Shown piece by piece: positions 3,001 to 27,000 of a stretch of DNA of 64,000 nt. The position numbers and the translations under genes were made by a program. The first letter of the stretch is position 1. Each line of letters begins with the position of its first letter. Source of the stretch: Solirubrobacteraceae bacterium. Its GTDB lineage: Bacteria; Actinomycetota; Thermoleophilia; Solirubrobacterales; Solirubrobacteraceae. Below the pieces are notes generated by a model. It had not been told where the DNA came from and did not search any database. It saw nothing but the letters and a program-made list of their open reading frames with translations. The stretch lies in the NCBI GenBank assembly GCA_034665145.1, contig JAXDGI010000007.1, positions 20,356 through 84,355 on the forward strand, written 5' to 3'.

Positions 3001-6000
3001 GGTGCAGCAGGGGCAGGAACGCGCTCGGGATCTGGAACACCTGGTCCTGCAGGGTGGTGTTGAACATCACCGAGACCGTTCCGCTGATGCTGAACAGGCT
3101 GCCCACCCCGGGGATGCCGAGATCGGCGCCCGCGCCGACGGTGAGGTAGCCCGCGACCCCGGGGTTGGTTCCCGGGGTCAGTCCGGTCTGGATGACCAGC
3201 AGGCCCGTGCCCTGGCCGTAGGTGAGCTTGGCCGAGCCCGCGCCGTAGGAGACCGAGGCCGTGACGTAGATGGTCAGGCCGCCCGGGTTGATGCTGAGCA
3301 AAAAGCCGCCGTCCAGGGAGACGAGCGCAGTCGAGGTTCCCGGCGGGGTGATCGAGGCGGCGCCGGCGATCTGGACCAGGAACGAGAGCGGTTGGAGGTT
3401 GAACGTCTGGGTCGCGTTGGACCCGTTGGGGCCCAGGCCGGGCAGGCTCAGGGTGACGTCGTGCTCCTGCTGGGTGAGGTTGATCTGCAGGGTGCCGCTG
3501 CCGTACAGGAAGATCCCGTAGGGCTGCAGGGCCGAGAAGTTGGTGGCCAGCGTCGCCACGCCCCAGATCTGCGGCCCGCTGGCCACCTGATTGCTCATGT
3601 CGAGCTCGAAGAAGCCCGCCGTGGCGCCGACGGTGCCGAGCTTGTAGATGCTCAGCTGGCCGTTGAAGGTGAGCTTGAAGATCTTGTTGACGGGATCGAT
3701 CTCCAGCTTGACGTCGGCCGAGAGCTGCATGAGCGGGGAGCTCGTGAAGCCGGCGGCGTTGAGGATGATCCCGCCCGAGAGCTCGATGAAGAAGCTCTGG
3801 GCCGGGGCGATGACCGCGAAGGACGCGGTCGACGCGGTGCCCCGGTTGCCGGCGCTGTCGGTCCACCCGCCGGCGGCGAAGGTCGCCTTGACCTGACCGG
3901 CGGTGAACGCGCCCGTGTAGAAGAAGCGGAAGGTGTTAGGACCGATCTGCACGACCGGGTAGCTGCCGGTCCCGGCGACCGGGGCGATCGTACCCAGGCC
4001 GGACCCGCTCAGGGTCATCGTCGTCCCGGTCACCGTCGAGGCGTCGACGGTGTGACCGAGCGTCGGGGTCAGGGCGACGTCGACCCAGGTCCCCGAGCTG
4101 TTGATCGTGTACTGCGAGGCGGTCGGGACGTCGCCGGCGGCGGAGGCCGTCCCCGAGAAGTTGCGCCACGTACCCGCGGTGAAGCTAACGGTGAGGCCGC
4201 CGCCACCGGTGTAACCCGAGAAGAAGTAGCGGTACACGTTGCTGGCCGGATTGGTGGCCGCGCCGAGCTGGACCGGAGCGCCGACGAGGACGAGCGTGTC
4301 ACCCGCGGTGTCGGAGATCGTGAGCTGGTTGCCGGCGCCGATCGATGCGGGATCAACCGATTGGCCGCCGGTCGACGGGTAGGTGACGTCGACCCAGATG
4401 CGTCCGTTGAGCGTGACCTCGTTCTGGACGCCGCCGGCCGATGGAGAGGCGAGCGTGCCCGTCGGCGAGGCGACGGTGAACGTCTCGGTGAAAGCCTGGT
4501 TGACGATCCCGGCGCTGTCGGCGAAGGCGCCGGCCAGGAAGGTGACGGTGTAGGTGCCGACGGCGAGCGGGCCACTGAAGCCGTAGCGCCAAGTATTGCC
4601 ATTGCCCTCGCGGGTCGCAGTCCCGCTCAGCGTGACCGGGGTGCCACCCGGACCGCTGATCTGGATCTCGTTGCCCGTGATGGTCGCCGGATCGATGGTG
4701 TTGCCAACCGTCGGGGTGAAGGTGATCTCGATGTAGCCCTGACCGTTGATGACTCCGGCGCCGATCGTGCCGCCCGCCAGGGAAACCACCGTGCTCGTGC
4801 TCGTCGTCGGATCGATGACGGTCTGCGCGAGGTCGGCCGTGGCGCCGCTGACGGTGAAGCTCTGGGTCGTGCCGAGGTTCGGGGCGTGGGGAGGTCCGCG
4901 GGCCGAGGTCGACGTGATCGTGCCGCCATGGAAGGCCACGGTGACCGCCCCGGGGACGAAGCTGCCGGTCAGCAGGTAGCGGTAGATGCCGTTGCCAAGC
5001 GCGATCGGGTTCGAGCCCGAGACGAAGGTGATCGTGCCCAGGCCGATGCCACCGAGGGTGAACAGGCCGGTGCCGGGAGGGTTGTCGAGCGTGCCGCCGG
5101 TCCCCGGGCTGACCTGGACGTCAAGGTAGGTCTGGCCGGCGGGGAAGTCGGCGACCGGATGCGAGACGACGCTGTTGTACGCGGTCGCGCCGGCCGGGGA
5201 GCCGAAGTAGGACACGGCCCGGTTGGTGAAGGTCACCGACAGCGTGCTCGTCGTCGCCCCGCTGGGCATGACGACGTTGACCGGGATCGAGATGACGTTG
5301 CTGCTCCCGACCTGGACCGGCACGCGGGTGGAGTCGACGGTCACCGTCCACCCGTTGGAGGCGGAGATCGTGATGCCGGCCAGGTTGATCGAGCCCGGGT
5401 CGAGCGTGTAGCCGGTGGGGATACCCCCCGTTCCGTTCTGAGGGATCGTGATCTGGATGGTCGGGTTGACGGCGGACACGACCTGGGTGCCGCTCGGGGG
5501 GGTGGTCGTGGTCAGGACCGAGACCGTGACGTTCCCGATCGTGGGCGCGGTCGGGACGTAGTAGGACCAGCTGTTGGGGATGAAGGTCAGGGTCACCGTG
5601 CCCGTCGGGGCGGCAGCGCCGGTGAGCCAGAAGCGGTAGGTCAGCGTCCCCGATCCGCTGGCGACCTGGGTCGGTGCCTGGGCCAGATTGAGGGCGAGCG
5701 TGCCCAGGCCCGAGCCGCCGAGCACGAACTTGGGGCCGCCGCTGGTGATCGAGCTCGGGTTGATCAGGTAGCCGGCGTCGGTCGGCTCGGTGAAGACGAC
5801 GTCGATCCAGTTGCGGTCGTTGAGGACGTTGACGTCGATCGTGCCGCCCTGGCCGGGGTTGAGGATGACCGCGGTCGGGCCCTGGACGGTGAAGGAGCTG
5901 TGGATGGCGCTCGGGTTCGAGGCGCCGGCGGTGGTGTTGCCCGAGGCATCGGTCACATCGGCGTTCTTGATGGCGCCGGCGGCGATCTGGACGGTCACGG

Positions 6001-9000
6001 TGCCGGGCTGGAAGGTGACGCCGGAGCCGAGCAGGTAGCGGAAGGTCCGCGTCCCGGTCATGTCGATCGCGTGGTAGAGCAGGTCGGGGTCGCTGATCCC
6101 GCCCGAGAATGAGGAGGCGCTGAGCACGACGACCTTGGCCAGGTCGGTCACCGTGTAGACGACGTGGCCATTCACCGTCTGGGAGGTGAGCTGGAGACCG
6201 ACGTGGGAGAAGCCGGTGGCGGTGGCCGCCGCGGCGAGCATGTCCGCGGCGTTGCCGTAGTGGGCAGCACCCGGGTTGAACGTCATCACCGTCTCGGTCG
6301 TCGGTCCGTAGCGCCACACCTGGTGGTTGGTCGTATCGAGGACGAGCGGGACCGAGATCGCCCCGGCGGCGAGGGTGATCGTCTCCATCGGGATCGGGCC
6401 CGACAGCGAGATCGTGCCGGTGATGGCGCTGCCGCCGATGGTGATGTGCGCGCTCGAGGCGAAGATCGAGGCGTAGTCGAGGTTGGCTCCGGTGGCGGCC
6501 GTGTAGGTGATGTCGATGTAGTGCTGGCCGCCCGTGGCATCGGTCTGCAGGCCGGGGGCGGCCGCACCCGTGCCGGCCGCGGTCGACGTGTCGGCGACGT
6601 TGACGTCGACTGCGCCGCCATCGGGAGCCGGGGCGCTGACCGTCGCTCCGGGAGCGGTGGTCGCCGCCGCGGGCGACTGCGCGGGAGCCGCGACATCGAA
6701 GGTGACGGGCTGGCCGGAGGAGTTGGCAAAGCCCATCTGCAGCTTGCCGTACAGGGTGAGGAGCTGGACCTGATCGGGAATGTCGGCCAGGAATAGGACG
6801 ACGACCTTGCCGCTGCTCACCTGGGACAGGTCGGCGTAGAGCTTGCCGCTGATCGAGACGTTGTTGTTGGCGAAGTTGAGCTTGCCCTCGATCATGAACT
6901 TGCCGTCGGTGGAGATCATGATCGTCACCTGGCCATTGAACAGCGCCTGCGACGTGTAGATCGAGTAGATCTCGGCCGAGCCGATGATCGTCATCGGCGC
7001 GCTGAAGGCGGCAAAGAAGTTCGCCTGGCCGCCCGTCGCCCGGGCCTGGGCGGCGACCTGCTGCTGAAGGCTGGTCAGCCACTGGCCGGCGCTCAGCTGC
7101 GTGGGCAGCCCGAACTCGGGATTGCGCAGCGCGAAGGGGTCGGTGATCGACGGCAGCGTCTTGAAGAACTCCACCCCGCCGGAGAAGTTGTTGATGGTCA
7201 GGCCGGTGTTGGGATCGAGCAGGATGCCGCCGGGGATCTCGACGTTGACGAACGCCTCCAGCGGGCCGAGCTGGCTGAGGCCGACCCGGAGCGTGAAGCC
7301 GGCCATGCCGCCGATCGAGAAGCCACCCTGCAGGCCCAGGTAGAAGACCCGGTGCGCGACGGTCGTCGTCGTGTCGGACGGATCGATGATGTTGTAGGCG
7401 CTGTCGAGCTTGAGGATTCCCCCGATCAGGCCGCCGTCGAGCTGGCCGCCGAACAGGTCGCCCTTGACGGTGACCCCGAAGGCGTCGATGCCGATGATGG
7501 GGAACTGGCCCTGGAGCAGCAGCGAGGGGTCGATCTGGATGCCCTGGACGGCGCCCGAGACCTCGAGGCCGCCCAGCCCCTGGATCCCGGTGACGCTGGC
7601 CGACAGGGTGAGGATGAAGTGGCCGGGGTCCTGGGAGATGTGGGGCCACTGGATTCCGATGCTGTCGATGCGGACGGGCAGGAAGGAGGGCCACTGGAAG
7701 GAGCTGCCGGTGGCCGAGCCGACGGTGAGGAAGACACCGAAGTTGCTGCCGGCCGAGAAGCTTCCGTCGCCGAGGAAGGCGAAGTTGCGGGCGGTGCCGG
7801 TGATCTCGAGCGTGCCGATCTTGACGTCGGCGCCCACGCTGGAGAAGGAGACGAGCGGATCACTGGCCCCGGCCCCGGTGTTGAGGTTGAAGTTGGTCGC
7901 GTTCAGCGTCAGGAACGAGCCGAGCGTGATCGACATCTGCGCAACGTGGAACTGGAAGGCGGCGACCTGGCCGTTGGCGCCGAAGGTCACGGTCAGGCGC
8001 AGCGCCTCGGTGTTGGGCGTTCCGTCGGTGTTGAGAGCGCCCGGCAGCGCGCTGATCGTGGCCGAGATGGCCTTGCCGGGCAGGAAGGTCGCGCCGCCCG
8101 AGGCGAAGTAGATCGAACCGGCGGTGACCGGGCTCGAGCCCGAGAAGCTCATCGAGAAGTTCTGGACGCCGACCCGGATGTCCTTGAAGGTGAGGATGTT
8201 GCCCAGTGACACGGCGTTGCCGCTGCCGGAGTTGGACAGCGGGTCCCCGGCCGGCGCGGCGACGCCGTAGTCCAGCTCGGCCTGGCCGAGGGTGAACCCG
8301 TTCTGGCGGATGACCAGGCCGGGGATGAGTCCGGAAGCGGTGCTGGTGGCCGACACGCTGTGTCCGGCGTGCGGGTCATAGGGCCGGATCGTGCCGGTGA
8401 GGTTGAAGGCGGGGAAGTTGATCGTGGCGCTGTTGATGACGACGAGCTGCTGGTCGGCGGGACCGGCGGGGTCGTAGGCGATGGCGATGCCCGCGGCCGA
8501 CAGGTTCAAGACGCCGGGCACGGTGGCGGTCAGCGAGGCGACGCGGAGGCTGAACTTGCCGGGCAGGTTGACGCGGAAGTTGCCGCTGAGCAGCCCGAGC
8601 GCGTCGACCTGGATGTCAAACGTGCCGAGGATCCCGGTGAGGTTGACGCTGACCCCGCTGGAGCTCTGCGCACCCGAGGAGCCTCCGAAGTTCAGCCCGG
8701 CCCGGTCGGCGCCCAGGGCGATGGTCAGGTTGAGCATCCCGTCCTTGAAGCCGACGTCGGCGATCGAGATCGTCGGGCCCTGGAGGCTGATCGGCCCGAG
8801 CGCGATCGTCCGCGGGCTGGTGCCGGCGCCGGGGGCCGTGGGCGAGATGGTGAAGGTCTGGATCTGGCCTCGCTGGTTGACGACCGGAGTCACCCCGGTG
8901 CCCTCATTGGTCTGGAAGCTGCCGGGCAGGAAGGTGAGGGTCACGGTCCCGGCGCCGAACAGGCCCGCGGCTGCGTTGCTCGCCGTCTGCAGGAAGTAGC

Positions 9001-12000
9001 GGTAGGTGACCGAGGTCGCGCCGGCGTCGGTGCCGGCGATGAGCAGCGGCGCCCCGACCAGCACCGGCGTCCCGTTGGCGTTGAGGCGCACGCCGATCAC
9101 GCCGGGTCCACTGAGCATGAAGGGAGCGGTTGAACTGAGCGTGGACTTGTCAATCGGCTTGCCGTCCATGCTGCGGTAGCTGATGTCGAGGTAGCCGGCG
9201 GTGTTGAGCGCGCTTGCGGTCACCGGCTGGCCGGGCGCCGGGTTGGCCAGCGCGGCGACCGGAGCGGCTGCGGCGTTGTCGGTGGCGACGAGCGAGAAGG
9301 TGTCGACCGAGCCGATGTCCTGGACGCCGCCGGTGCCAAACGCGCCGGGCAAAAACTGGACGCTGACCACGCCGGTGGCGTTGGTCGGGAAGCCGGTGAC
9401 CGTGTAGCGCCAGGTGTTGACCTGACCGGCGACGCGGGTCGGGGTGGTCCCGATGACCAGGCCGGGAACGGTCTGGCCGCCGATCAGCACCGAGAACTTC
9501 TGCGTCTGGCTCGTCGTCGGGTCCACCCCGGCGCTGTAGGCAATGTCGATGTGATCGAGCGGGTGGGTGGCCAGGGTCTGGTCTGACAGCGTTGCCCCGG
9601 CCAGCGGGTAGGCGACCGAGGCGGTCGGGAACAGCGCGGCGGTCTGGCCCGGCCCCGACGGGTCGATGCCCGACACGCCGAACACCGAGAAGCTGCCGAC
9701 GGAGAACGACGTCATGTGGAAGCCGGTGGCGGGATCGATCGTGAAGCTGGCGCTGCCGCCGATGCTGAACACCTGCGTCCCCGACACGGTGATGCTCATA
9801 CCGGCGTTGGAGATGGCCAGGGTGAGGGTTCCGCTTGCGGACCGGCTGACGGCCAGCGAGCCGTGGATGTCGAGCACCGAGCCCACGGTGAAATGGACGT
9901 TGGCGACGGTGAGCAGGAACGTGTAGGCGGGGACGAGGTCCGTCGTGCCGCCGGTCGGGCTCAGCGGGGTGGCGGTGGTGTTGATCTGGAAGCTGACCTG
10001 GTCTGCGGTGAGCGTGAGCCCGTCGAGGCCGACGAGGGCGAGCGCGCCCGTCGCTGACAGGACGTAGAGACCGTCGGCCTTGCCCGACCCCGGGGCAAGC
10101 CGGAAGGACAGCGTCGCCTGGTTGATGAGCAGGCCGATCGCGTTGGCGTTCGTGGTCCCGTCGGAGTTGGTGTAGGGGCCGCTGCCGACGAACAGCGACA
10201 GGCCCGTGCCCGAGAAGCTGTTGTTGGACAGGGCGAAGTTGCCCTTGATCTCGAGCAGCCCGCCGAGATTGAGGTTGACGTCCTGGGCGACGACCGCGAA
10301 CGTGGTGGCGGCGTCGATCTTGATCGGGATGGCCACCCCGCCGACGGTGACGACCTGGTCCACGCTGGTGCCCGTCGTGTTGACCTCGAGTCCGAGGTCG
10401 GCGCTGCCGATCGAGCCCGAGGCGGTGCCGAGCGCGATCCCGGCGATCCCGTAGCCGCCGCCGGACTTGGGCAGGACCACGAAGGCGCCGCGCGCGTTGG
10501 AGATCGGGCCGACCGAGCTCGAGCCGTTGAACGCGATGTGGGCCACGCCGATCTCCAGCGTCGGCGTCCCGGTGCCGCCGGCCGACGGCGCCGTCCTCGC
10601 ATACTGGAAGAAGAAGTCCCCGGAGACGGAGTTGCCGGCCAGGGTGACGGTCAGGGCGTCGGCCTCGACGCGAACGTAGGGACCGGCGGCGAGGCTCAGC
10701 GTCTGGGTGGCGGGGCCGCTGGCGCCGGTGTAGTGCAGCGTGTCGCTGACGGCCGAGCTGGTCGTGTTGAACTCGATGTTGAGCGACGTCGCCGCCACCG
10801 AGAAGCCGGGGATCTGGACGAACGGACTGCCGCTCAGCTGGCCGGCGATGCCGCCGGGCAGGAGCTCGAGCGCGCCGGACGCGTTGGTGATGGCGATGCC
10901 GGCCGCGCTCGCCGGCGGATTGACCGCCGTGAAGCCGGCCGTGCCGATGATCAGGCTCGTGTGATCAAAGCCGATGCTGACCACCTTGAGGCCGTTCTGG
11001 GTCGTGGTCTGCTCAAACCAGAAATGGGCGGTGAGGCTCTGGCCGAAGATGGTCAGGTTGACCGGGGCGCTGCTCGTCCCCGCCTCCACGCGGAGGTAAG
11101 GGCCGGCAGGGAGCGTGGTGCCGCCGGTGCCCGTGACGTCGGCGACCGGATTGATGGCCGCCGGGGTGGTGTTGAAGGCGACGGTGACCGAGCCGCTGAA
11201 GGTCAGATACGAGGCGAGGGCAGTACTCGGGGTGAGGGTGGCAGTCAGCTCTCCGGCCACACCGGTGCTGGTCAGCTCCACCGTGCCCGTGGTGATCGTC
11301 GCGGTGAGGAAGGTGGTCGTCCCGTTGCCGAGCGCGAGGCTGAGGTTTGAGACGGTGAGGTAGGCGATGTCGCGCACGGGGTCGCGCCCGACGGTCACAT
11401 CGCCGGTGAGCGTCTGGCCGGCGATCCCCAGCGTGATGCTGTGGCCGCTGACCACGTAGCCCGGAGCGAGCTGGCCCTGTGTCTGGCCGGTCGTGTTGAG
11501 GGCGACCGCGAAGGTGCCGCCGACCGTGACGCCGGGGATGTTGATGGCCACGCCGGCGGTGAGCGAGCCGTAGATCCCGGCCGAGGCGATGGTCAGCGTG
11601 CCGGCGGCGTCGGAGACCACGACGAAGGCGCGCTGGCTCGTGCCGATGCGCAGGCTGCCGTTGGCCAGGGTGACGACCGTCGTGTAGCTGCCCGTGGTCC
11701 CGGTCCGCGAGACGGTCAGGTCACCGGACAGAGTCTGGCCGCCGACGGTGATCTGCGCACCCTGAGCCGAGACGGTGAGGAAGTGGCCGGCGGGCAGCGT
11801 CAGCGTTTGCGTTGCCCCGCCGACGGTGAAGACCTCGTTGACCGCCTCCGGGGTTCCGGCCGACTGCAGCGTGTTGAAGGTGATCGTGACCGCGTTGACC
11901 GCGACGGTGGCCGCGCCGCCCAGGTTGACCGTCACGCCGCCGGAGAGCTGACCGGCCGTCCCGTCGGGGGTGATGAGCAGGAGCGCCGAGCCGCCCGTGA

Positions 12001-15000
12001 GCTGGGCCCCGGTCGTGCCCGTGCCGAGGAACAGGCCGACGTTGGTGGCGGCGATCTTGACCACCTTGCGGTCATCAGAGGTGTTCAGCCGCCCATCCGG
12101 GCCGGCGTCGGTGACCGACTGGAAGGAGAACTGCCCGGTGAGCGACTGGCCGAACAGTGTGGCCGTGAACGGCTGGGTGGTGGTGCCCAGCTGGGCCAGC
12201 AGCGAGCCGGGCGCGAAGGCAACGTCGATGGGAATGCCGGTGCCGAAGCTGATCTCGCTGGGCAGACCGTTGAAGGCGACCGTAGCGGCGACGTGGCCGG
12301 TCACGCCGCTGGGGGAGACCGTGAGGTCGCCGGTCCCCTGGGTGATGGCCAGGCCGGCGCTCGCCGAACCAAGCGTGATGGCCAGGTGGGCGAAGGTCAG
12401 GTGGACGGTGCGCGAGGCGTCGCGGCTGAAGGTCACGTCACCGGTCACCGATTGGCCGAGGACGCTCAAGGTCACGCCGGTGCCGCTCACCTTGACGTAG
12501 CTGTTCGTGCCCAGGGTGGTGTCGATGGCCACGCTCAGGCCGGCGGTCAGGTTGACCCCCGGCACGGTGACGGCGATCTGGCCGCTGAGTGAACCGGCCA
12601 GGCCCTTGCCCGTACCGGCGGCGCCGCCGGCGCCGGTGATCGTGAAGCTGCCCTGGCCCTGCGTGAGGGTGACGAAGTTGGTGGCGCCGTTGCCCAGCGC
12701 GAAAGTGACGTTGGCCGCGGTGAGGGTGTCGGCCGTCGCCGTATGGGCGAAGGCGAAATCACCGGTCAGGGTCTGCCCGAGAACGCTGAGCGTCACCCCG
12801 GTTCCCGACAGCTCGGTGTAGGGACCGGTCGGTAGGTCAAGCGACACCGACTGGCCACCGGCCGACAGTGACTCCTTGACCGGGGCGCCGGTCTGGTTGA
12901 CCGCGAAGGCGAAGGTTCCGTCCAGGGTCACCCCGGGGATCAGGTTGTGAAGATTGACAGTGCCCGACAGCTGGCCGGCGATGCCCGTGGGCAGGATGAC
13001 GAGCAGGCCCTGGCCGCCGGAGAGGACGGTCCCGATGGCGCTGCCAAAGCTGACGCTCACGCCGGTGGCGGCGAGGGCAATCTGGGTCTGGCCGGTCGAG
13101 CTGGTGATCTGCTGGATCGCGAAGGAGCCGCTGAGGGTGACCGCGTTGGCAATCGTCAGTGAGATAGCGGAGCCCGAGATCCCGAAGTACGGCCCGCCGG
13201 GGACGGTGCTGCCGTCACCGAGCAGCTGTGGCGCCGAGGTCGTGTTGATGGCGAGCGTCAGGGTGCCGGTCAGCGCGACCGGTCCGAGGTTCAGGCCCGA
13301 GGAGCTCGTGCTCACCGCAAGGTGGCCGGCGATCCCGCCGTTGGTGACGAGCAGCGAGCCCGAACTGATGGTGATGGGCGAGAGGCCGGTCAGCGTCACC
13401 TCGGCGTTGGTGACGGTGATCGACACGACCGAGCTGCCGTTGGCCTGGCTCTGGGAGAAGGCGAAGCTGCCGGTGAGCGTCTGGTCGAGGAAGGTGAGGC
13501 TGAGCGGGCTGCCGGTGACGGCCAGGTACCGGCCGGGTTCGTTGAGCGTCACGCTCTGGCCGCCCACGGTCATGGTCGTGTTGACGGCCTGGTCGGACGT
13601 GTTGAGCTCGAGACCGAGCGTTCCGGTCAGGGTGAGGTTCGGGATCGAGACGGTGACGCTGGCGGTCAGGGCGCCGACGAGCCCGGCAGAACCGCTGCCG
13701 AGGGCGCCGTAGGCGAGAGTCCCGGCCCCGCCGCTCAGAGTGAGCACCGGCGTGCTGGCGTTGCCGAGCACCATCGCGAGGTTTGAGACCGTCACCGCGA
13801 CGATGTCGGCGCCGCCGTGGATTCCGCGCTGGAAGGTGAAGTTCCCGTTCAGCGTCTGACCGCCGATGGCCAGCGCCACCCCGGTGCCCTGGACGAGGAG
13901 GTACGGGCCGGCGGGAACGTTGATGCTGACGCTCGACCCGCCGACCGTGAATTGCTGGTTGACCGCGGTCGCGGTGCTGTTGACGGCGAGCGTGAAGGTT
14001 CCGCTCACCATCGTCCCGAGCCCGGTCGGATCGACGGTCGCGGTGAGCGTGCCGGCGATCCCGCCGGCGCTGATGAGCAGCGCGCCGCTGGCCTGCGAGA
14101 CGCTCAGCTGGCTGCCCGAGGGCCCGATCGTCATGTGGCCGTTGGCCAGGACCACCTCGACCAGCTTCTGCGGGGTCGCCCCGGGTGCCGCCTGCGGACT
14201 GAGCGGGATCGTCACCTGTGAGAAGGAGAAGTCGCCCTGCAGGGACTGACTCCCGATCGTCAGCGTGGCCCCGGTGGCCGTGACCCGGAACAGGCCGGCG
14301 GCGAGCGAATCGGTGCCGACGGTCTGGGCGGCCGTCGTCGTGTTGATGGCCAGGGTGGCGGCGATCCCCGAGCTGAACAGGCCGGTTGCCGCGGCGGTGA
14401 CCTGGGTGCTGAGCTCGCCGTAGACGCCGGCCGCGCCGAAGGCGAGCTGGCCCGAGGTGATCGCCACCGAGACCCCGGAGCTGCCGCTGCCCAGCGCCAG
14501 GATCAGGGCGCTGCCCGAGGGGACGCTCGTGCCGAGCAGGATCTCGAGGTGGGCGGGAACGGAGCCGGCGGCGTCGACGTAATGGAAGCCGATCGCCCCG
14601 GTCAGAGACACGTCGCCGAAGGCGAGGGTCAGATTAGTCCCGTCGATGATCGACGTCGTGTCGGCGATCCCGAACTGCGGGGTGCCCGTGTTGTTGAACG
14701 ACACTGTCGCGGTGCCCGAGAGCTGGAGGCCCGGCACGCCGACAACCTGAACCGTGCCTGTGGCCGAAAGCGCGTACTTCCCGCTGGATGGATTGGTGAA
14801 CTGGTAGGGCTGGGTGAGCGTGAGGTAGACGCCGTGCGCGGTCGGGTTGATCGTGGCGCCGCTGATGAAGGCCGGGCCCTGGCCGAGGAAGACGATCATC
14901 GTGCCCGACACGCTGTGCGTCCCGGAGCTCGCGTCGAAGTTGCCCTCGATCTCGACGACGTTGCCGATGTTGATGATCCCCGAGCCGGCGACGTCCATGA

Positions 15001-18000
15001 ACGGGGACCCGCTGGAGTTGATCGCCTCCGAGGAGGAGAAGGTGATCGGCAGCGTCACCCCGGCGACGGTCACCGTCTCGTCGACGGAACCGTGGGTGTC
15101 GTTGACGCGGACCGAGACATTGGCGCTGGCGTTGAAGCCGCCGGTGCTCGTGGTCGCGTTGACCGTCCCCGAGAAGACCCCGGCGAAGCCGCCGTTGATG
15201 AGAACGAGCGCGCCCTGGGCGGTGAGGCTGACCGGGTCAGCCGCCTTGCCGGTGTCGGCGGAGGAGTTGCCGGTCACCGAGGCGGTGACGTTGGTGAAGC
15301 CGATCCGCGTCAGCGGGACCGGTGTCCCCTGATACAGCAACGCTCCCGAGCTCGCGTTCTGCGCGACGAACAGGTCAGGCTGGCTTGAGCCGGTCAGACT
15401 CGTGAGCAGGACCGCCGTCGGGGTGACCGTGCCGGTGCCCGTGACCACACCGGCCTTGAACTGGCCGGCGGAGGTCGCGGCGGCGCCCCGGTTGAGGTAG
15501 AGCAGCGGACTTCCGGCCGCCGTGCCGAGCACGAGGTCGGGCAGTCCGTCGCCGTTGACGTCCCCGGTGGCCAGGGCGACCGCGGTCGAGGCCGCCCCGG
15601 AGGCGGTGCTCAGAGTCTGGGCGGAGGCAAAGTTTTGCCACGTCGTGCCCGTGCCGTAGCCGCGGTTGAGGTAGACGTAGCTGGCGCCCGTGCTGCTGGT
15701 CACGACGAGATCGGGCAGGCCGTCCCCGTTGACGTCCACGGCGGCCAGGCCGGTCACGGTCGGGGTCTCGGAGCCAACGGCCGCGGCCCCGCCCAGGCCC
15801 GGCCACAGAGTCGAGACGACGGCGGACCCGGGGGGCACGTCGTTGGCGAAGCTGCCCAGGCCCGTGAAGGTGTTGCCGCTGATGTTGGCGTAGCTGATGG
15901 TCTGTCCCCCGACGAGCAGGCTCCCCGAGTTCGGGAAACCGGTGGTCGAGGCCACGGTCATCGTCGTCGAGGTGTGGCCGAGCGTCGCCGACAGCGAGGT
16001 CTGAGGACTGGCCTGGTTGAGATAGAGCTTTGTCGTGACCCCGGTGCCGCCGATGATCACGTCGGTGAGGTGATCACCGTTGACGTCGGCCAGCGCGACT
16101 GCTGTCCCGCCGTTGCCAAGCCCGACGCTGGAGAGCGTGAACGCCCCAGCGCCGTTGCCCAGGTAGAGGTGGTTGGCGATGCCGGCAACCACCAGGTCAG
16201 AGTTGCCGTCGCCGTTGAGATCACCGACGGCCACGGCGGCGGCGCCCGGGGTCGATGTGCTGCTCGCCGCCGTCGTGGCAAAGCCCTGCCACTGCGACGG
16301 CGTGACCGTGGCGCCGAGCAGCTCGGTGATTGAGCCGGTGGGGAAGGTCAGGCCGGTGAAGCTCTTGCCGTCACTGCCCAGACCGGAGTAGCCGACGAGG
16401 TCGCCGCCGACCCCGCCAACGAGCAGGTGGCCCTGCTGGTCAAAGCCGGCGGTCGAGGTCACCGTCATCGTCAGGGCGCTGGTCAGCAGGGCGCCGGTGA
16501 GCGCGGTCGACGGGCGCCCCTGATTGAGGTAGACGCTCGTCGTTCCCGCGGTGCCGCCGGTGGCGACGATGAGATCGAGCAGGCCGTCGTGGTTGATGTC
16601 GGCCAGGGCAACGGAGGTGATGGGGGCGGTGGCCGTACCGCTGATCGTGGGCAGCAGGTCCGAACTGGCCGGGGCGAAGCCCAGCCAGCGGCCCGACGCA
16701 TCCTTGCCCTTGTTGAGCCACAGCTGGGCTGGCCCCCCGGTGACGGCGAGGAAGACGTCGGGGAACCCATCGCCGTTGACGTCGCCCGAGGCGATCGCGG
16801 TGACGCCGGCCGCGGTCGGAACCAGCGCCGTGCCGTAGGCGGTCGAGGCGAAGCCCGGCTGGCTGGACTGATCAAAGGCGAAGCTCCCGGTCATCGTGAC
16901 GGCGCCGGCGACGGTCAGGGAGGCGCCCGTGGCGGTCACCGAGACATCCGGGCCGGCGGGGACGTCAATCGTCACGCCCCCGACCGTCTGGTTCACGGCG
17001 TGGGTGCCGGTGTTGATCTTGAGATCGAGCCCGGTGGCGCTGAAGCTCGCCCCCGGCACGTTGAACGTCGTGCTCGGGATGCTGCTCGCCGTGAACTCGG
17101 CGGCGACGCCGTTGCCATCGATGATCAGCGCGCCCGCCACGTTGTCGGCGGCGGTGATGTTCACGTAGGTGGTGGTGCTGGTACCGAGCCTGAGGGCGAG
17201 ACCGGTGATCGCCGCCTTGACCACCGTGTGGCCGTCACCGGCTGTCGTCCTCGTCAACGTGACACCCGTGGCCGAGATCGACTGGCCGGCAATGGTGAGC
17301 GTGGTCGGGTTGCCTCCGGTCAGGTCAAAGGTGTTGGCGGCGAGCGAGCCCTGCGTCACCTTCGTCGTGTTGAAGTCGATCGTCAGCGGACTCGTGAAGC
17401 TGAGCCCGGGCACCGTGCTGGCCACATCCCCCGTGAACGAGCCGTAGATCCCGCCGTCCTTGGCACCGGGTGTCGTATTGCTGATCAGGCTCAGCGAGCC
17501 GCCCCCGTTGGTGACCGAAAGGAAGTTTGTGGTTCCATCGCCCACGTTGAGGGCGACGTGGTCGAAGGTGAGCGTGAGCACGCCCGTCCCGGCGGTGAAG
17601 GTGAAGTTGCCGCTCAGGGTCTGGCCGCCGGCGGTGATCGTGACCCCGGTGCCGCTGACCTGGAGATAGTGACCGGAAGCCAGTGACAGCGCGAACGGCG
17701 TCGGTGAGCCGGGCTGCGGAACGAGGGCCGAGATCGCCTGATTGGTCGAGTTGACGACGAGGCCGAAGGTCCCTCCGAGCGAGACCCCGGGGATGTTCTG
17801 CAGCGAGACGGCGGCGGTGAGCCGGCCCGCGATCCCGACCACTGCGGGCTTGGTCGGGGTCGCCGTCTTGGCCGGCGTGTTGATGAGCAGCAGCTCGCCG
17901 CTGATGCCGGTCAGGGTGAGGAAGTTGACCTTGCCGTCGCCCAGACCGAGGGTGCCGTTGGCGATGGCGATGGCCACGGCCTTGGGATCGTCGGCGTTGC

Positions 18001-21000
18001 CCGGGATCCCGTCCTCGCCGGGGCCGGTAGCGACCTGACTGAGCGTGAAGTCACCGCTGATCGTCTGGCCGAGCGCGCGCAGGGTGGCGCCGATCGCCTC
18101 GAGGCTGAGGTAGGGGCCGGCGGGCAGATCGAGGGAGAGAGCCTGGCCCCCGACGGTGAGGCTCGTGGCCACAGCCGTCGAGCCGGTGTTGATGGCCAGC
18201 GTATAGGTGCCGGTGAGCGACACGCCGAGCGAGGGGTCGAGCGAGAGCGAGGCGCTGAGCGTGCCGGCGATCGCGCCGGCGCTGAGCTGCATCAGGCCCG
18301 ACACGCCGGAGGCCGAGACCGCTCCGCCGATGAGGCTGAGGGCACCGTTGCTGATTCCGATGGTGAGCACCGAGGCGCCCGCACTGTCCTTCGTGGCAAC
18401 GAGTGCGAGGTTGCCGGTCAGCTGCTGGCCGAGGATGGTGAGGGCCGCTCCGGTGGCGTCGAGGCGCAGATAGGGCCCGGCGGGTAGCCCCTGAGCAGCC
18501 GCGCCGGTCGTGTTGACGTCCAGCGAGAACGTGCCCGAGAGCGCGACGCCGGGCACCGGCGCGAGGACGACGGACATCCCGATCGAACCGGCGATGCCGG
18601 CGCTGGAGATGACGAAGGTTGAGGTGGTGGCCGACTGGGTCGCGGTCAGAATCGGTGTCCCGGTGCTGCCGCCGAAGGCGCCGCTGAGGTTCGCGGTCTG
18701 GATCTGCAGCTGCGGGGCGCCGCCCACGATCTGGCGGCTGACGGTGATGTCGCCCGTCAGGGTCTGCCCGAGGATCGTCAACGACACGCCGGTTCCCGCG
18801 ACCTGCACGAACGGACCGGGAAGCAGGGCCAGGTCAACCTGCGTGCCGCCGACCGTGAAGCTGTCGATCAACGCCGCCCCGGTGTTGACCTGCAGGCCCA
18901 GGGTGCCGGTCACGGTGACACCGGGGACGGTGAGGGCCACCGCGGCGGCGAGCGTGCCGGCCACCTGCCCGGCGTCGACGAACAGTGCACCGGTGACGCC
19001 GGTGATGGAGAGTGGGCTCGAGCTGCCGCCGAGCACGAGGGAGCCATTGGCGACCCCGAGCTCCAGGATCGTGCCGGCGTTGTGCGAGGTGACCTTCTGC
19101 ACAGCGAAGTCGCCGGTCAGGGTCTGTCCGCCAACGGCGAGCGTGGCGCCCGTCGCCTCCAGGCGTAGGTAGGGACCGCTCGGGACGTCAAGGGCGACCG
19201 TTGTCGTCCCCACGGTAAAGCTCTGGCTGACTGCGCTCGTCGTCGTGTTGACCTGCAGGACGAAGGTTCCGGAGAGCGCAGCGGCGGTCGGCAGGGTGAG
19301 GCCGACGTTGCCGCTCAGCGAGCCGGCCACGCCGCCCCCGGTCAGGAGCAGAACACCCTGGCCGCCGGTCAGCGAGGCGGTCGCGCCCGAGCCACCGAAG
19401 CTCAGCGCCACGTTGGCGGCGACGATCGTCGTCGCGGTGGACCCGTCGGGCAGCGTCGCGTTCTGGATTGAGAAGTCCCCAGTCAGCGTCTGGCCCAGGA
19501 TGGTGAGGGTCGTCTGGCTGCCGGTCACCCGCACGAAGGGGCCGGCGGGGAGATCGAGCACGACGGTCTGACCGCCGAGGGTGACCGAGCTCGAGACCGG
19601 CGCGACACCTGTGTTGATGGCCAGCGCGTACGTCCCGCCGAGCGTCACGCCGGGGACCGAGACCCCGAGCGTGCCGCTGATCGTGCCGGCCAGACTGCCC
19701 GCACCCATCTGCAGGGTCCCGGCGGCGCCGGTGATGGCCACCGCCCCCGAGCCGAGCGACAGGCTGACGCCGGTGGCGGTGATGGCCAGCCCGGCGCTGT
19801 CGGTGCTGAAGGCGAAGTTGCCGTTCAGGGTCTGGCCGAGGAGACCGAGCTGGCCGCCCACGAGCTGGACCGAACCGGGGTTGGGACCGGCGAAGGTCAC
19901 AGCGACTCCGGGGCCGCTGGAGCTCGGGATGGTCAGCGTCTCGTTCAGCACCTTGCCGGTGTTGTTGAAGGCGACGGTCACCGTGCCGGTCAGGGTCAGC
20001 CCGCTCACACCGAGCACGGTCGCCGTGCCCGCGGCGACAAACGCGTAGGTCGACCCGATCTGGATGAGCCCGACCTGGGCGCCGCTGATGAGGATGCCGG
20101 TGGCCAGCGGGTTGGGCGCACCGCTGGCCAGTGTTCCCGGACCCTGGCCCAGGAACACGCTGAGGCCGTTGCCGGCGAAGGCCTGGGCCGCGGCGCCGTC
20201 GGCGAGCGTGTAGCTGCCCGCAGAGACGTTGCCCTGAATCGTGACGAAGTTGCCGACGTTGAAGGTGAGGCCGTCGATCGAGAGCCTGAAGTACGGCGTC
20301 TCAGACTGGCCGAACTGAACCTCGATCGGCTGGCCGCCGACGGTCACCGTGGTGTCGATGGTCCCGCCGGTTGTCGGGTCGTGGATCGTGTTGACCCGGA
20401 GGACCGCGTGGCCGCCGACGGTCACCGAGCTCGAGCCGCCGGTGACCGTCGCCTGGAGGACCCCGGCCGCGCCTGTGGCGGTGAGGACCAGCGCGCCCGA
20501 TCCGTTACTCAGCGTCGCGCCGCCGGCCGAGGCCGAGACGTTGGCCGCCGCGATCACCGTCTGGGCGCTGCTCCCAGTGCCCTGGCGCGAGAAGGTGAAG
20601 TCGCCGTGCAGGGTTCCGCCGGCCAGGCCGAGGTCCACCCCGCTGGCGGTGACGCTGACGTAGGGGCCGGCCGGCAGGGTGAGGGTCGTGGTGCTCGAGC
20701 CGATCGTGAACGGCTCGGTCACGGCCGTCGGGATCGTGCTGATCGCCATCGAGTAGGTGCCGACGCCGAGGGTGACACCGGACGGGAGCGAGAAGGTGAC
20801 GCCCGAGATCGACATCGCACCGGCGATCCCGGCGCGGGTGATGAGGAGCTGGCCCGTCCCGTCGGCGACGGTGACGGCGCCACCGCCGAGGCTGAGCAGC
20901 ACGCCCTCGCTGCTGCTGTTGCTGAAGGCGACCTTCAGCGCCGGGGCGCCCGTGGCGTCGGTGCCGCGCTGCAGGACGAAGTCGCCGCTCAGGATCTGGC

Positions 21001-24000
21001 CGGCCACCGTCAAGGTGGTCCCGGTGCCCTCGATGGCCAACAGCGCGGACGCCGGATGGGTGTCGATCGCGACGGTCAGGCCGGTGCCGAAGGCGATCCC
21101 CGGGAGGCTGGTGGCAACCGTGGCGGTCAGGTTCCCGGCCACCCCGGCCGAGTCGACCGTGAGGGTGCCGGCCGCGCCGCTGACCGTGACCAGACCGCCG
21201 CCGAGCGACAGGGCACCGTTGGCCAGTGTCACCATGGTGGCGCTGCTCGTCGTGCTCAGGGTGACGTCCCCGGTGATGACCTGATCAAGGGCGGTGAGGG
21301 TGACGCCCGTGCCCGCGACGCTGATGTAGCGGCCGGTGGGCAGGGCCAGCGTGATCGGGGTCCCGCCCAGCGCGAAGACATCGTTGACCGGACCATTGGT
21401 CTGGTTGAATTGGACGGTGAGTGCGCCGGTCAGGGTGAAGCCGGGCACATGGAGAGTCAGGGCCCCGCTGGCCGTCCCGGCGAGCCCGGCCGAGCTGACG
21501 AGCACGGCCCCGCTGCCGTGACTGAGGGTGGCGATGCCGCCGCCGATGGTCACGTTGAGGTTGGTGACCGCGGCGATGACGATCGGCGCGCTGCCGGCGT
21601 CGGTCGTGCGCTGGAAGCCGAAGTCGCCGGTCAGCGTCTGGGTGCCGACGGTCAGCGTGGCCCCGATCAGCTCAGCGCGCAGGTAGGGGCCGGCGGGGAG
21701 GTCACCGACCGCGGCCGGGGTCGTGTTGATCGCCACCGAGATCGTGTTGGCGGTGAGGCCGGTGAGCGGGCTGGAGACGAGGTGGGCGCTGAGCGAGCCC
21801 GCCACCCCGGCGCTGGTGACGGTCAGCGAGCCAGCGATCGTGTCCAGCGAGAGGAAGGTCGTCGTCCCGTCACCGACGGTCAGCGTGGCGCCGGCGACGG
21901 TGAGGACGGTGGTGGTGACTCCGGCCGTGGTCGACCGCTGGAGGGTGAGGGTGCCGGTGAGGCTCTGGGCGCCGATGGTGATCGTCGCGCCGCCGGCGGT
22001 GAGCGAAAAGAAGTTGCCGGCCGGGACGGTGGTGGGCTGGCCGCCGATCGTGAAGCCCGGGGTGGCCTGACCGGTCGTGTTGAGCAGAAGGGTGAAGGTG
22101 CCGCTCACCGAAGCACCAGGGATGGTGACCGCGACGGTCCCGCTCAGTCCGCCCGCTACGCCCGCGGCCGAGATCTGCAGCTGGCCCGATCCGTTGGTCA
22201 GCGTGGCCAGCGGGGGTCCTCGCGAGCTGACGTTGCCGTTGCCGTCCGAGAGCGAGACGGAGGCGTTGGCGATCGTGACTGAGATCGTGCCGGCGGTATC
22301 AGTGAGGGCGAGGTCACCCGTCACCGTCTGACCGAAGACGTTGAGGTTGAGGCCGAGGCCGCCCACCGAGACCGACGGCGCGGTGGCCGTGGCCACGTCC
22401 TGGCTTCCCTGGAAGACAAGCGGCAGCGAGGTGCCCGAGCCGGGCAGGGCGACCGTCTCGTTGAAGGTGTTCTGGAAGGCGTTGATGCGCACGCGGCCGG
22501 TCCCCGAGGCGCTGACGCCGTTGGTCCCCACCAGGGCGACGGTGCCCGAGGCATCCAGCGCGTACTTCCCGCTGTTGTCGGTGAACAGGACGACATTGGC
22601 GTTGGTGATGAGTAGGCCCACGGCCAATGGGTTGGTGTCGCCGTTGGCGAGCAGACCGGGGCCGTTGCCGAAGAAGACGGTGAGCCCGCTGCCGGCAAAC
22701 GTGCTCCCGTGCAGACCGTTGGAGGCGACGACGCCGTCGGTGAGGCTGACGCTGCCCGACAGCCAGATCGAATTGCCGATCTGGATGGTCAGGTCCGAGA
22801 TGGAGACGCTGAACAGGTTCCCCTGACCAGACCCGTAGTCGACCGTGAGCTGCTTGCCCCCGAGGCTGACCGTGGCGTTGATGGCCGCGCCGGTGGTGTT
22901 GATCTGGAGGATCACGTTGCCGCCGGCGGTGAAGCCGGAGCCACCCACCGCCGCCGTCCCCGACACGTAGCCGGCAATGCCGGGATGGGCGCTGTCGGTG
23001 GAGACCACGATCAGTCCCTCGCCATCGGAGACGGTCGGCGAGGAGGCGCTGCCCAGCCAGACCGATACGCCGCTCATCCCGACGATCGTGGTCGTTGCGC
23101 TGGCCACCGACTGCTGCTGGAAGAGAAAGCTGCCGGCCAGCGAGCCGACGGTGTTGCTCGTCCCGGGGGTGATGACCGCGGTCTTGGGCACGGTCACCGC
23201 GGCCTGGATATAGGGCCCGGCTGCAATCGCGGTCGTGTCACCGCTCACCGTCACCGGAGCGCCGGTCGTGTTGACCTGGATCTTGGCCGTCAGACTTCCG
23301 CTGGGCGCGAACCCGGGGAGGGCCACCGTCGCGCTGGCGCCGATGTCAGCGGCGACACCCGCCGAGCTCAGTTGCAGGGACCCGCTGGCGTTGGTGATCT
23401 GCAGGTAGCTACCGAAGCTCAGCGCGACCGCCGAGCCGGTGATGGTCACGCCGCCACCGCCGGCGGCCAGCGTGAACGTGCCGCTCAGGCTGGCCGAGCC
23501 GACGGTCAGCACCGGAGTGGGCGCGGTCCCCGAGACGGCCATGGTGAAGTGACCGCCGGTTCCCGAGCTGGGCAGCGAGACGTCGCCGGTCACGGCGCCA
23601 CTGGCCGTGATGCCCGGGACCGCCAGCGTCAGTGCCGACGCGCTGAAGCTGCCGTGGAATCCACTGGTGGTATCGGCGGCGAGGGTGGCTGAGCCGCCGG
23701 TGATGGAGGCCAGGCCGCCGCCGAGCGCAGCGGCGACATTGGTCAGGGTGAGGGAGACGCCATTGCTCGACGGTGTGACGATCACGTCGCCGCTCAGCTG
23801 CTGTCCGAGCAGGGCGACGGTGATGTCCTGGCCGCTGAAGTGCGAGAACGGAGTCGTACTGCTGGCCGCCCCCGGGACGTTGACCGTATAGGCGCCGGCG
23901 CCGACCTGGATCTGGCGGGCGACCGGGGTGGTCTGGGTGTTGCGCTGGACGCCGACCAGGCCGGTGAGCGTGACGCCTGGCAAGCCGGTGAGCGCCCCGA

Positions 24001-27000
24001 GACCGCTGGCCTGCAGCGTGTAGGAGTGGTCGGGCTCGACGACGAGGCCAAGGCCCGCGCCGCTGACGGTGAGCTGCGTCCCCGTGCTCGGACCGATCGC
24101 GACGAGCACGCCGGTGGCCCCGATGAGCAACTCTGTCGCCCCCGACGGCCCCGTCCCCGGACTCCTGGCCACGGCGAAGTTGCCGGCCAGCGAGAACCCG
24201 CCGACGGCGAGCGTCACGCCGGTGCCTGTGAGCGCGGCGGCCCCGGCCACGACCGGCGCCGTCGTCGCCCCGGCTTCAGGCAGGGTCACGTCAGAGCCCG
24301 TCGTGTTCAGCTCGGCGCGGAACGCGCCGGTGAAGCTCAGGTCGGAAACGTTGACGACGGTGGCGTCCCCCTCAGCGCGCATGGCGAACGTGCCGTTGGG
24401 CTCGAGCACGAAATGGGCGAAGGCGCCCGAGCCGCCGAGTTGGAGACCAACGTCCTGGGCCGAGCTGGACCCGCGCTGGCCGAGGAACAGAGACGCGCCC
24501 GTCACGTCGATCGTGGTCAGCTGGCTGGCCAGGTCGCGCGTGAAGGTGAAGGCCCCGGTCACATCGCCGAGTGGAGTCTGGAGCGTGGGCGAGCCCGTGG
24601 CCGTGAGGGTCGACACGGGGACGTCGGCGGACGGGGTCGTGAAGTGAGCGATCTGGCTGCTGCTTGTGTTGATGCTGATGCTGAGCGTGAGCGCGCCGTT
24701 CAAGCTCAGGGGCGCGAGCAGAGCGGGCAGCGCGCCCGAGACCGTGCCGGTCGCGGCGAACGTGCCATCGGCGTTGATCTGCGCGGCGGCCGAGACGGAG
24801 GTGCCGGTGATCGAAACGGCGATCGCCGAGCCCGAGCGCGAGAAGCTCAGCGCGCCGCTGAGATCGAGGAAGGCGGGGAGCTCGAGCGCCCCGTTGCCGG
24901 CGATCGAGAAGGACGGCGTGGCCGTGGTGGTGTCAAAGGCGACGGCGAGCGACGCGACGAGCGTGAGGCCCGGGACGCCCACCAGCCGGGCCGCCCCGGT
25001 CACCGAGCCGCTGGCGCCTGTTGTTCCCGTGGTGAGCGTCCCCACCGCGCCGGTCACCGTCACGGCGGCTGAGCCGGCGGCGATCTGGGCGCTCGCCCCG
25101 GTGGCCGCGACGGTGAAGGTCGCGCCCGAGACGGTGAGCGCGAACTGGCCGTTGAGGGCGCCCACGGCGCCCAGCGTGAGGGCGGCGGTGCCGCTCAGCG
25201 ACGTCCACGGGCCGGTCACTCCGGTGGGCTGGGCCATGGCCAGAACGACGGTTCCGGCCCCGGTGTCGATCGTCACCGGCGCGGCCGAGAGATCGCCGAG
25301 ACCGTCGTAGGCGGCGTGCCATCCGGTCCCGGTCAACGTGAGTGAGCCGGCGCCCGCGACGGCCACGTCACCGGTGGCAAGAACGGCGAATGTGGGACTC
25401 CCGCCCGCGTCGGGAGTGCGGGCGACCAGACCGAGGCTGGCGTTGCTCAGCGATGCCGTCGGGCCGCTGGTCCCGGCGGTGAGGGTCGCGCTGACGCCCG
25501 TCGCGCCGAGCGTGGTCTGCATCGTCGTGCCGTTGTCGGAGTAGGTGACCTTCAGGCTCGAAGCGCTGAGCGTCACGAAGTTGCGGATGCTGATGCTCGG
25601 CGAGGCCAGCGTGACGGTCAGGGTGCCGGCGGTCGCCGCCTGGCCGGCCAGCGTGTAGGTGCCGGTGACCGTCCCGAAGGTTGCGTTGAACGGTCCGCTC
25701 GTTCCGGTGTCGATACCCCCGCCGCTCGAGCTGATGGTCACCGTGCCGGCGAACCGGGTGTTGGCCCCGGTGCCGGTGATGCTGATGTTCGAGAAGCTCA
25801 GGGAGGGAGCGCCGAGCTCGAGCACCCCGCCGATCGTGAGGTCGCTGGGCGCGGTGATCGTCGTCGTTCCCGTGAGGGCGCCCGACACGTACTGGTTGAG
25901 CTCGGTCTGGACGAAGGCGAGCAGGTCGGAGAGCGGGCTGCTCGCGGTGAAGTAGGTGGAGAAATGCGGCAGCCCGGCGCTGACGATGCCGGTGCTCGGG
26001 TTATAGGCCGAGGTGATGGCGACGGGTGCGCCGGCCGGCGGGAGGTAGTAGATGCTGGGCGAGGCGGCGCCCTGGGCGACCGTGATGGACAGCTGAGGAG
26101 CGACCGCGAACTGCTCGATGAGGGCGCCGGTCACGGTGTCGACCGCGGTGAGGTCGTAGGCGGAGGACAGCGCGTTGAGCCCGGCCACGGAGACGGTGGA
26201 GACGGTCACACTGACCTCGGCGTCGTGCGGCAGGCTGCCGGGCGCGAAGGTCAGGGTGGCGTTGCCCGCACTGATCGAGCCGCCTTGCGCGGCCAGGATC
26301 AGAACAGGTCCATAGGTGACGGGGGGTCCTCGGGCGCCCAGCGTTCCCGAGTATGTGGCGCTCACACCTTGCAAGGCGCCGGCTGACGAGGTGGCTCCGA
26401 CGCCCGGTGGCGTCGCCGCGGTGGCCTGGGTCAGGTCACCGGCGCCCGCGGACGGGGCGGCCCCGGCGGCGCTGGGCACGATCCCGGCAACGGTGCTGGG
26501 AGCCGGCGCGCCGCTGCCCGCGGTGGGGCTGCCGGACACGGCGACGTTGGCGGCGGCGAGCAGGGCCGGGTCGGCGCCGCTGCCGTCAAGCGCGGTGGAG
26601 CCAGCGCCGGCGTTGCCGGTGGCCGCGCCGACAGCGCTCAGTCCGGCGGTGACGAACGTGCCGCCGGTGGTCGCGGCGGCGAGCTCGATGGCCGGCGCGC
26701 TGAGGGCGCCGGTCATGGCCGGAGCCGCGGTGGGCGCTTCGGTGGCGGCGATGGTGGCGACGGCGGCGCTGCTCTGCACGCCGGCGGTACCGCTGTAGGC
26801 GATGTTCGATGTGCCCGCGGGCTCCGCCGTCGAGCCGCCCGAGGCCCCCGAGCCGCTGCCGGTGATGGTGGCCGGCCGCGGAGTCACGCTCGCCGACGAC
26901 GAGCCGGCCGAGTTCGAGCTGTCCGTGCCGTTCGACCCGCCGGTGGTGCTCGAGCCGCTGCTGTCAGCGGGCGGGGCGCTCGGCGATTGTCCGCCGCCGC

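Follow-up and report, generated by a model that had tools for sequence, protein, structure and literature searches.

Conserved RGPP tetrapeptides at three internal sites of a giant secreted protein of Solirubrobacteraceae: candidate points of translational arrest

Translational arrest of the RAPP/RGPP type is released by a pulling force on the nascent chain. In eukaryotes, the arrest exerted by the Alu domain of the signal recognition particle (SRP) and the pause of XBP1u hold elongation until the nascent chain is at the membrane translocon. SecM of Escherichia coli, with the core RAGP, monitors the activity of Sec in order to regulate secA: its arrest is released when Sec pulls on the exported chain, and SecM is then degraded. 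The closest described systems in sequence are ApdA of Actinomycetota, ApdP (core RAPP), the RQH family and seven peptides of Streptomyces lividans (PMC7897499, PMC10951233, PMC10987492, PMC12992588). RAPP/RGPP arrest peptides are shorter than 300 aa, carry an N-terminal export signal on the same polypeptide and the arrest motif near the C-terminus, and control a downstream gene. Arrest of the RAPP type outside the regulation of Sec and YidC is represented by CruR of Bordetella pertussis and other RAPP leaders that precede non-Sec genes, which are still small leader peptides regulating a downstream gene (PMC12992588). Here we describe three RGPP tetrapeptides in the interior of a giant secreted surface protein that is encoded on the minus strand of a 64,000-nucleotide stretch (the window) of the genome of a soil Solirubrobacteraceae bacterium (phylum Actinomycetota; assembly GCA_034665145.1, contig JAXDGI010000007.1, positions 20,356 to 84,355).

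The arrest cores have been dissected experimentally (Fujiwara et al., 2025; PMC12992588). RGPP is the stronger of the RAPP/RGPP pair, produces an arrest that is refractory to EF-P, and was the most robust and most context-tolerant core in four different contexts. The Arg is irreplaceable, Gly is fully accepted in place of Ala, and neither Pro can be dispensed with. Across 10 major bacterial groups, no tetrapeptide is more under-represented than RGPP, which is reportedly purged from bacterial proteomes because it is able to stop ribosomes without relief by EF-P. Only nine RAPP/RGPP proteins are encoded by S. lividans; seven of these were tested, and each arrests on Streptomyces and Bacillus ribosomes. 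The original prediction for the window, made from the sequence without database searches, listed ApcA along with ApdA and ApdP as bearers of RAPP/RGPP-type motifs; ApdA and ApdP indeed have RAPP, but the natural core of ApcA is RAPG according to the group behind PMC12992588.

The giant protein contains exactly three RGPP, all in the reading frame and at precisely the coordinates given in the original prediction (Table 1), so that the R-[A/G]-P-P core characteristic of arrest peptides is present three times; there is no fourth RGPP and no RAPP, RAGP or RAPG in the whole 11,098 aa. Arg makes up 1.23% of the residues, and composition predicts 0.044 RGPP, a first-order Markov model 0.022, in agreement with the earlier estimate of well below one copy. 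The count of RGPP and RAPP against a shuffled null, suggested at the time as a check, gave three and zero, respectively, and none of 5000 shuffles reached three RGPP. Each of the three GPP tripeptides of the protein is preceded by Arg. Among the recurring 4-mers of the protein, RGPP ranks 12th, being outranked by the Lys/Pro tail and by the repeat motif PAGPYLR, and after a look-elsewhere correction over all tetrapeptides the statistic for this single protein is marginal. Chance is removed as an explanation because the three sites are conserved in relatives.

The rest of the genome avoids this tetrapeptide. Across a crude set of 3,073 other open reading frames (ORFs), 28.8 RGPP are expected and 6 are present (ratio 0.21), which makes RGPP the third most depleted of the 12,571 tetrapeptides with an expectation of at least 20; the ratio for RAPP is 0.29. 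The giant protein accounts for ~1% of the residues of the ORF set, yet holds three of the nine RGPP of the genome.

A lack of conservation in homologues had been named as a refuting outcome, but all three sites are kept in orthologues of about 50% identity (42-54%). The close relatives come from public genomes, all labelled as metagenome bins of Solirubrobacterales, Solirubrobacteraceae or Actinomycetota; loci in the genome collection were found with an alignment of five closer sequences. Site 1 is represented by GSGRGPP ahead of the same domain in a relative from the same genus (G002, 42% identity), by GLGARGPPGTYGPQLISA in three more genomes (L026-L028), by RAPP at the same place, directly before the domain that contains the HFS motif, in P0013, and by PGSGRGPP at the end of the leader in G001, though a different domain comes next. 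Site 2 is invariant in G001 (51% identity) and in all seven loci of the genome collection, and site 3 is kept as TS.[SGA]ARGPP in G436, G439, G440 and G442 (~52-85% identity). The complete orthologue of G440 (10,845 aa) carries R[GA]PP in frame at aa 598, 1423 and 7070, corresponding to sites 1, 2 and 3, and nowhere else. A survey of 400 genomes across the phylum returned only the window's own genome at E<=1e-15; the family is sparse, and the survey therefore added no homologues.

The signal extends to the wider family. A HMMER scan of 1.84 billion representatives yielded 786 relatives, and the counts given here refer to the best 150 of these, each from a separate cluster at 50% identity (219,607 aa in total). 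In this set, RGPP is found 43 times, in 37 proteins, against an expectation of 1.81, an enrichment of ~24-fold, and AGPP, SGPP, GGPP and TGPP fall below expectation. The ~105-aa beta repeat unit that builds most of the chain, with 39 copies in the giant protein, is present in 1,531 copies over the 151 family proteins surveyed. The insertion that holds site 2 marks a discrete sub-type of this unit, L[ST]D-x5-6-[ASP]-RGPP-[LIF]xxL[ST]NG. Among the 22 units scoring above 95 bits against the sub-type model, 21 have RGPP and one (P0025) has RAPP, and in an 18-sequence alignment of the sub-type RGPP is the sole contiguous invariant block. Three of the four RAPP of the family stand at places homologous to RGPP sites, namely in P0025 (site 2), in P0013 (site 1, as above) and in P0089, the context of which, SGRAPPA, parallels the AGRGPPA of four other members. 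Lys is never found in place of Arg at these types of site (~40 homologous sites). Seven representatives have a true N-terminus with a signal, and in five of them an R[GA]PP is located in the first ~1100 aa.

Taken over the family, the evolutionary pattern (Arg invariant, Gly or Ala at the second position with RAPP as the sole variant seen, both Pro invariant) coincides with the tolerance of the arrest core determined experimentally (PMC12992588). RGPP is thus kept under strong purifying selection at three syntenic positions in loops or a linker. So far the RGPP core is known from small leader peptides controlling a gene downstream of them; in this exported megadalton protein it is positively conserved at internal sites, in a genome that otherwise avoids it five-fold.

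The giant protein seems to be exported. A signal-like sequence, RRNRFWFGVVGLLALCLPYAALATASA, is encoded in an upstream ORF that lies in the same frame and also contains the start of the low-complexity leader. An N-terminal signal of this kind is what arrest peptides released by force need as the source of pull. In this assembly a lone in-frame TAG divides the signal and leader ORF from the giant body, but the low-complexity sequence is of the same kind on either side of it, and in G002 no break separates the homologous N-terminus from the giant ORF.

All three sites are located outside the cores of folded domains. Site 1 is at the end of the leader. The loop insertion at site 2 corresponds to a 10-aa gap in paralogous units, as judged from the alignment and the survey of units, and is present in one of the 39 units; the loop at site 3 is 5-7 aa longer than in the adjoining paralogous Ig-like domains (self-BLAST against aa 7447-7545 and 7665-7757). 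In an AF2 model of aa 1440-1800 (predicted local distance difference test score, pLDDT, 73.7; predicted template modelling score 0.64), the repeat region forms a ribbon of long antiparallel beta hairpins of 12-16 residues. The site-2 insertion is modelled as a coil (residues 173-186, with pLDDT <50 at 176-181) between two long strands, with RGPP at the C-terminal end of the loop, two residues before the start of a strand at 187. A Foldseek search of the PDB with the repeat region gave nothing at E<=0.001 and nothing better than E = 0.04, the best matches being porins with a template modelling score of ~0.1. The position of sites 2 and 3 in loop insertions, that of site 1 at the end of a disordered leader and the low confidence of the site-2 coil indicate that RGPP is an add-on rather than part of the fold core. 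The possibility that the three sites represent one repeated domain was rejected: beyond [AS]RGPP the contexts are unrelated, and sites 2 and 3 are in different types of domain. The domain that follows site 1 (aa 255-378) had been labelled ZU5 (PF00791), a label that profile searches did not confirm: there is no Pfam match even at E<=10, and a profile search of the PDB gave only a chance-level match. What is present is the HFS tripeptide, as part of the conserved LPHFSTY(F) with which the domain ends. An AF2 model of this domain from a four-sequence alignment was too poor to use (pLDDT 36).

The favoured reading, at about an even chance, is that the three RGPP are conserved, force-sensitive points of elongation arrest or pausing in a Sec-exported giant protein. 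Once the P-site tRNA carries Arg-Gly-Pro and Pro-tRNA occupies the A site, formation of the peptide bond would be blocked by the RGPP core, unrelieved by EF-P, and the ribosome would wait until export driven by SecA and SecYEG, aided by folding outside the cell, pulled the nascent chain taut. Site 1, coming after the signal peptide and a leader of ~550 aa that is predicted to be unfoldable, would delay synthesis of the first foldable domain until the chain has engaged the translocon; at sites 2 and 3, deeper in the ~11,500-aa chain, translation would again be brought level with export. The original proposal was that of built-in pauses coupling translation to export or folding. Conservation and the pattern of tolerance characteristic of the arrest core speak for such pauses. 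Export is a likelier source of release than the protein's own folding, since the ~100 residues made last are, at every site, either disordered or part of a domain not yet complete. All that goes beyond a conserved RGPP in an exported protein, including the stalling of this organism's ribosome at these sites and the release of the stall by export, is inference.

Several observations weigh against arrest at these sites. The core is insufficient alone, and the adjacent N-terminal residues matter (PMC12992588); in the giant protein, the residues before RGPP are small and flexible (G/S/T/N/A) and may make weak contacts with the tunnel. Exchange of Gly for Ala fits the arrest core, but it would likewise be the mildest change in a structural motif of any kind. 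Two large family members, P0012 (6015 aa) and P0019 (5674 aa), are devoid of RGPP, so that the tetrapeptide is not required for making such giant proteins. An ApdA-like RAPP leader upstream of secDF was not found in this genome. Finally, the family is rich in structural turn motifs with Gly-Pro (PAGP 386 times, AGPY 296 times, LPAGPY[LV]R, FLGxGPA), and some of the RGPP and RAGP of distant members are variants of such turns (V/IRGPPL, LFLGRGPPRL, IRAGP[FY]).

A broader generalization is more tentative still, falling somewhat short of an even chance: a family of secreted giants from soil Actinomycetota, beta-repeat proteins of 5,000 to 13,000 aa, might use the EF-P-refractory RGPP as an internal sensor of slack. 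The ribosome would be held at defined points, the first of them following the signal and the unfoldable leader, until Sec export takes up the chain, which would prevent folding or aggregation of megadalton beta-rich cargo in the cytoplasm. Upon failure of export, transcription of the 34-kb gene might possibly be aborted by Rho. If true, an arrest peptide would here for the first time act in cis on the synthesis of its own functional cargo and not as a disposable regulatory leader; in the literature, no description was found of conserved internal RGPP in giant secreted proteins. Should the sites stall, they would represent a second use of arrest peptides, in which production of a very long secreted protein is matched to the pace of its export, and would bear on how cells make and export proteins of at least 10,000 residues without misfolding in the cytoplasm. 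Should they not stall, they would be naturally occurring RGPP contexts in which arrest is evaded, and would help to define the contribution of the adjacent N-terminal region.

Compared with the described arrest systems, the giant protein is similar to ApdA, ApdP, the RQH family and the S. lividans peptides in the core, in the N-terminal export signal and in the tolerance to substitution, and belongs to the same phylum as ApdA and the Streptomyces peptides. The layout is different: the three sites are internal, at aa 251, 1621 and 7395 of 11,098, that is, 3,700 to 10,800 residues from the C-terminus, with thousands more codons after each, and they are not encoded directly upstream of a gene that they could control. 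Given that two defining features of the class, the small size with a C-terminal motif and the control of a downstream gene, are missing, the sites should not be filed as members of the arrest peptides; if they stall, they would be a new use of a known device. With SecM, the proposed logic of a nascent-chain arrest released by Sec pulling on the exported chain is shared, but in the giant protein the arrested chain would be the cargo, and the core is RGPP instead of RAGP. The RAPP arrest of CruR and similar leaders differs from the giant protein in that it still operates in small leader peptides. The SRP Alu-domain arrest and XBP1u provide a functional analogy to the proposal only, as the mechanisms and organisms are others and there is no sequence relationship.

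Elsewhere in the genome, on contig C177, a 175-aa predicted protein with multiple transmembrane segments ends in ...PRTPRAPPAPPQR*; its RAPP lies five residues before the stop, the layout of RAPP arrest peptides of the Streptomyces type. Past two genes on the opposite strand, the following same-strand gene encodes a 183-aa membrane protein.

The RGPP could instead be a site that is exposed after export, for cleavage and maturation by an Arg-specific protease (between Arg and Gly of [AS]RGPP), for modification or for docking, and that is tolerated in translation because export pulls the chain through any stall. This explanation, the main rival though less likely than arrest, agrees with the location of all three sites in surface loops or a linker, within reach of an enzyme or partner, but a cut inside the beta-hairpin loop of site 2 or the loop of the Ig-like domain at site 3 would be of no obvious use. 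The recurrence of the short consensus [AS/G]-R-G-P-P in different structural contexts is as expected for a recognition site; the choice of a tetrapeptide otherwise purged from the genome would still need an extra explanation. Trypsin-like sites and salt bridges usually tolerate Lys, whereas Lys, at 0.99% of the residues almost as frequent as Arg, is never found for Arg at the ~40 homologous sites. Site 1 lies at the boundary of leader and domain, beside the conserved HFS motif that the original prediction had read as a possible site of self-cleavage, and the N-terminal region may accordingly be processed; no gene for a protease, modifying enzyme or partner is evident beside the giant gene.

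A purely structural role, in which a rigid Gly-Pro-Pro kink starts the next beta strand and the Arg is packed against the sheet, is improbable. Such a role could be derived from the abundant Gly-Pro motifs of the family, of which some RGPP and RAGP of distant members are clear variants, from GGPP at the same hairpin turn in two ordinary units, and from the hydrophobic strand residue ([LIF]) that always follows RGPP at site 2. A structural need would, however, be expected to recur, and the insertion is found in a single unit of 39; the loop at site 2 has low confidence in the AF2 model and lacks packing. Site 1, in a disordered low-complexity leader, has no common fold context, since a different domain comes after it in G001, and at site 3 the loop after RGPP differs in length by up to 10 aa among orthologues while ARGPP is fixed.

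RAGP, the SecM-type core, is itself ~3-fold enriched in the family (18 against 5.6 expected), being found in P0012, P0014, P0015, P0022, P0052, P0059, P0086 and others. It occurs mostly as [DNQE][IV]RAGP[FY], a variant of the LPAGPY[LV]R turn that echoes the GIRAGP of SecM, and looks structural.

At the DNA level, all three RGPP of the window use GGA, a rare Gly codon (5.8% of the Gly codons of the gene), two use CGA (3.7% of the Arg codons), and site 3 also has the rare CCT. Site 2 of G001 and one site of G002 likewise have GGA; other orthologues have GGC, GGG or GGT. The bias is soft (nominal p ~0.002-0.006 for three out of three) and is partly explained by context, GGA being commoner before Pro in general (12-18%). 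Sites 1 and 2 also have 11 nt in common, CGAGGACCCCC. In orthologues, the same peptide is encoded by CGC, CGA, CGG or CGT for Arg, by GGA, GGC, GGG or GGT for Gly and by CCC, CCT or CCG for Pro, so that selection acts on the peptide, which is invariant while the codons vary. For the same reason, and given the general preference for GGA before Pro, a DNA motif composed of CGAGGACCCCC and GGA was rejected as the selected feature. Frameshifting or slippage at the run of C was also rejected, as the off-frame stops, at 6, 3 and 86 codons in +1 and at 106, 113 and 178 codons in -1, follow no common pattern.

The nanopore-derived bin of the closest relative (G436; L030, L034, L038) has a frame change at the run of C that encodes Pro-Pro of site 3, and another upstream; these breaks are most likely homopolymer errors, not biology.

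Accordingly, chance or a DNA-level feature, such as a GC-rich oligonucleotide, a site of recombination or methylation, or a slippery run of C for frameshifting, is highly improbable: the sharing of CGAGGACCCCC by sites 1 and 2, the GGA at all three sites, with its modest p-value, and the apparent frame breaks of G436 have to be set against a peptide that is invariant under differing codons, a frame that stays open for thousands of codons past each site, and conservation at three syntenic sites, which excludes chance.

Table 1. Coordinates of the RGPP sites and of other features mentioned in the text (window coordinates unless a contig is given).
Feature	Coordinates	Strand	Description
RGPP site 1	26321..26332	minus	aa 251-254, TLGARGPP; closes the N-terminal leader, which is rich in Ser/Thr/Pro/Ala/Gly; the first conserved domain follows directly
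RGPP site 2	22211..22222	minus	aa 1621-1624, VSSRGPP
RGPP site 3	4889..4900	minus	aa 7395-7398, TSARGPP
Arg-Gly codon pair, site 1	26330-26325	minus	
Arg-Gly codon pair, site 2	22220-22215	minus	
Arg-Gly codon pair, site 3	4898-4893	minus	
Loop insertion at site 2	22211..22249	minus	aa 1612-1624, SDGNGNVSSRGPP; paralogous repeat units have the tight turn SLSLGDGTT.F instead
Repeat unit (~105-aa beta unit) of the RGPP-bearing sub-type	22043..22372	minus	aa 1571-1680; 1 of 39 units in the protein
Segment modelled with AF2	21683-22765		aa 1440-1800
Enlarged loop at site 3	4871..4927	minus	aa 7386-7404, GGTITSTSARGPPHAPNLG; Ig-like tandem domain
First conserved domain after site 1	25949..26320	minus	aa 255-378, GPVLILAAQGG...LPHFSTYF
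Giant ORF body	2..27082	minus	9,027 codons in the window, 11,098 in all
In-frame TAG	27310-27308	minus	between the upstream ORF and the giant body
Upstream ORF	27308..28288	minus	326 codons, same frame as the giant body; export signal RRNRFWFGVVGLLALCLPYAALATASA and start of the low-complexity leader
Sortase gene	58808-59479		
Downstream paralogue	-10720..-9347 (G000 C7)	minus	secreted protein; outside the window, in window coordinates
Downstream paralogue	-8594..-7143 (G000 C7)	minus	secreted protein; outside the window, in window coordinates
RAPP-ending 175-aa protein	9433-9957 (G000 C177)	minus	outside the window
Frame changes in G436	~679.7-680.6 kb (G436:C2)		at the site-3 Pro-Pro C-run and upstream

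The giant ORF extends 6.2 kb past the left edge of the window, and the 11,098-aa product has a mass of 1.086 MDa, which bears out the earlier figure of ~1 MDa. The protein is all-beta and rich in Gly (14.5%), Thr (13.1%), Ala (12.2%) and Ser (10.3%). The sole domains recognised by Pfam are FG-GAP repeats near aa 3780 and, below the threshold (19.4 bits against a cut-off of 23), a weak RTX-like match near aa 8750. Pro-Pro is rare along the chain (14 in 11,098 aa against ~24 expected), and in several family representatives the single Pro-Pro is that of RGPP.

The gene for a carboxyltransferase is located upstream of the giant gene, and downstream of it, on the same strand, are two genes for paralogous secreted proteins of ~460-480 aa without assigned function. 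No link is evident between the positions of RGPP and these downstream genes, which may nevertheless be functionally linked to the giant gene. The giant protein has no LPXTG at its C-terminus, although a sortase gene is present in the window; its last ~60 aa, encoded outside the window (G000 C7), comprise a strongly basic KPKPKPKKHKPKPKKHKAKPKKHK... tail that follows a Pro/Ala/Val-rich stretch.

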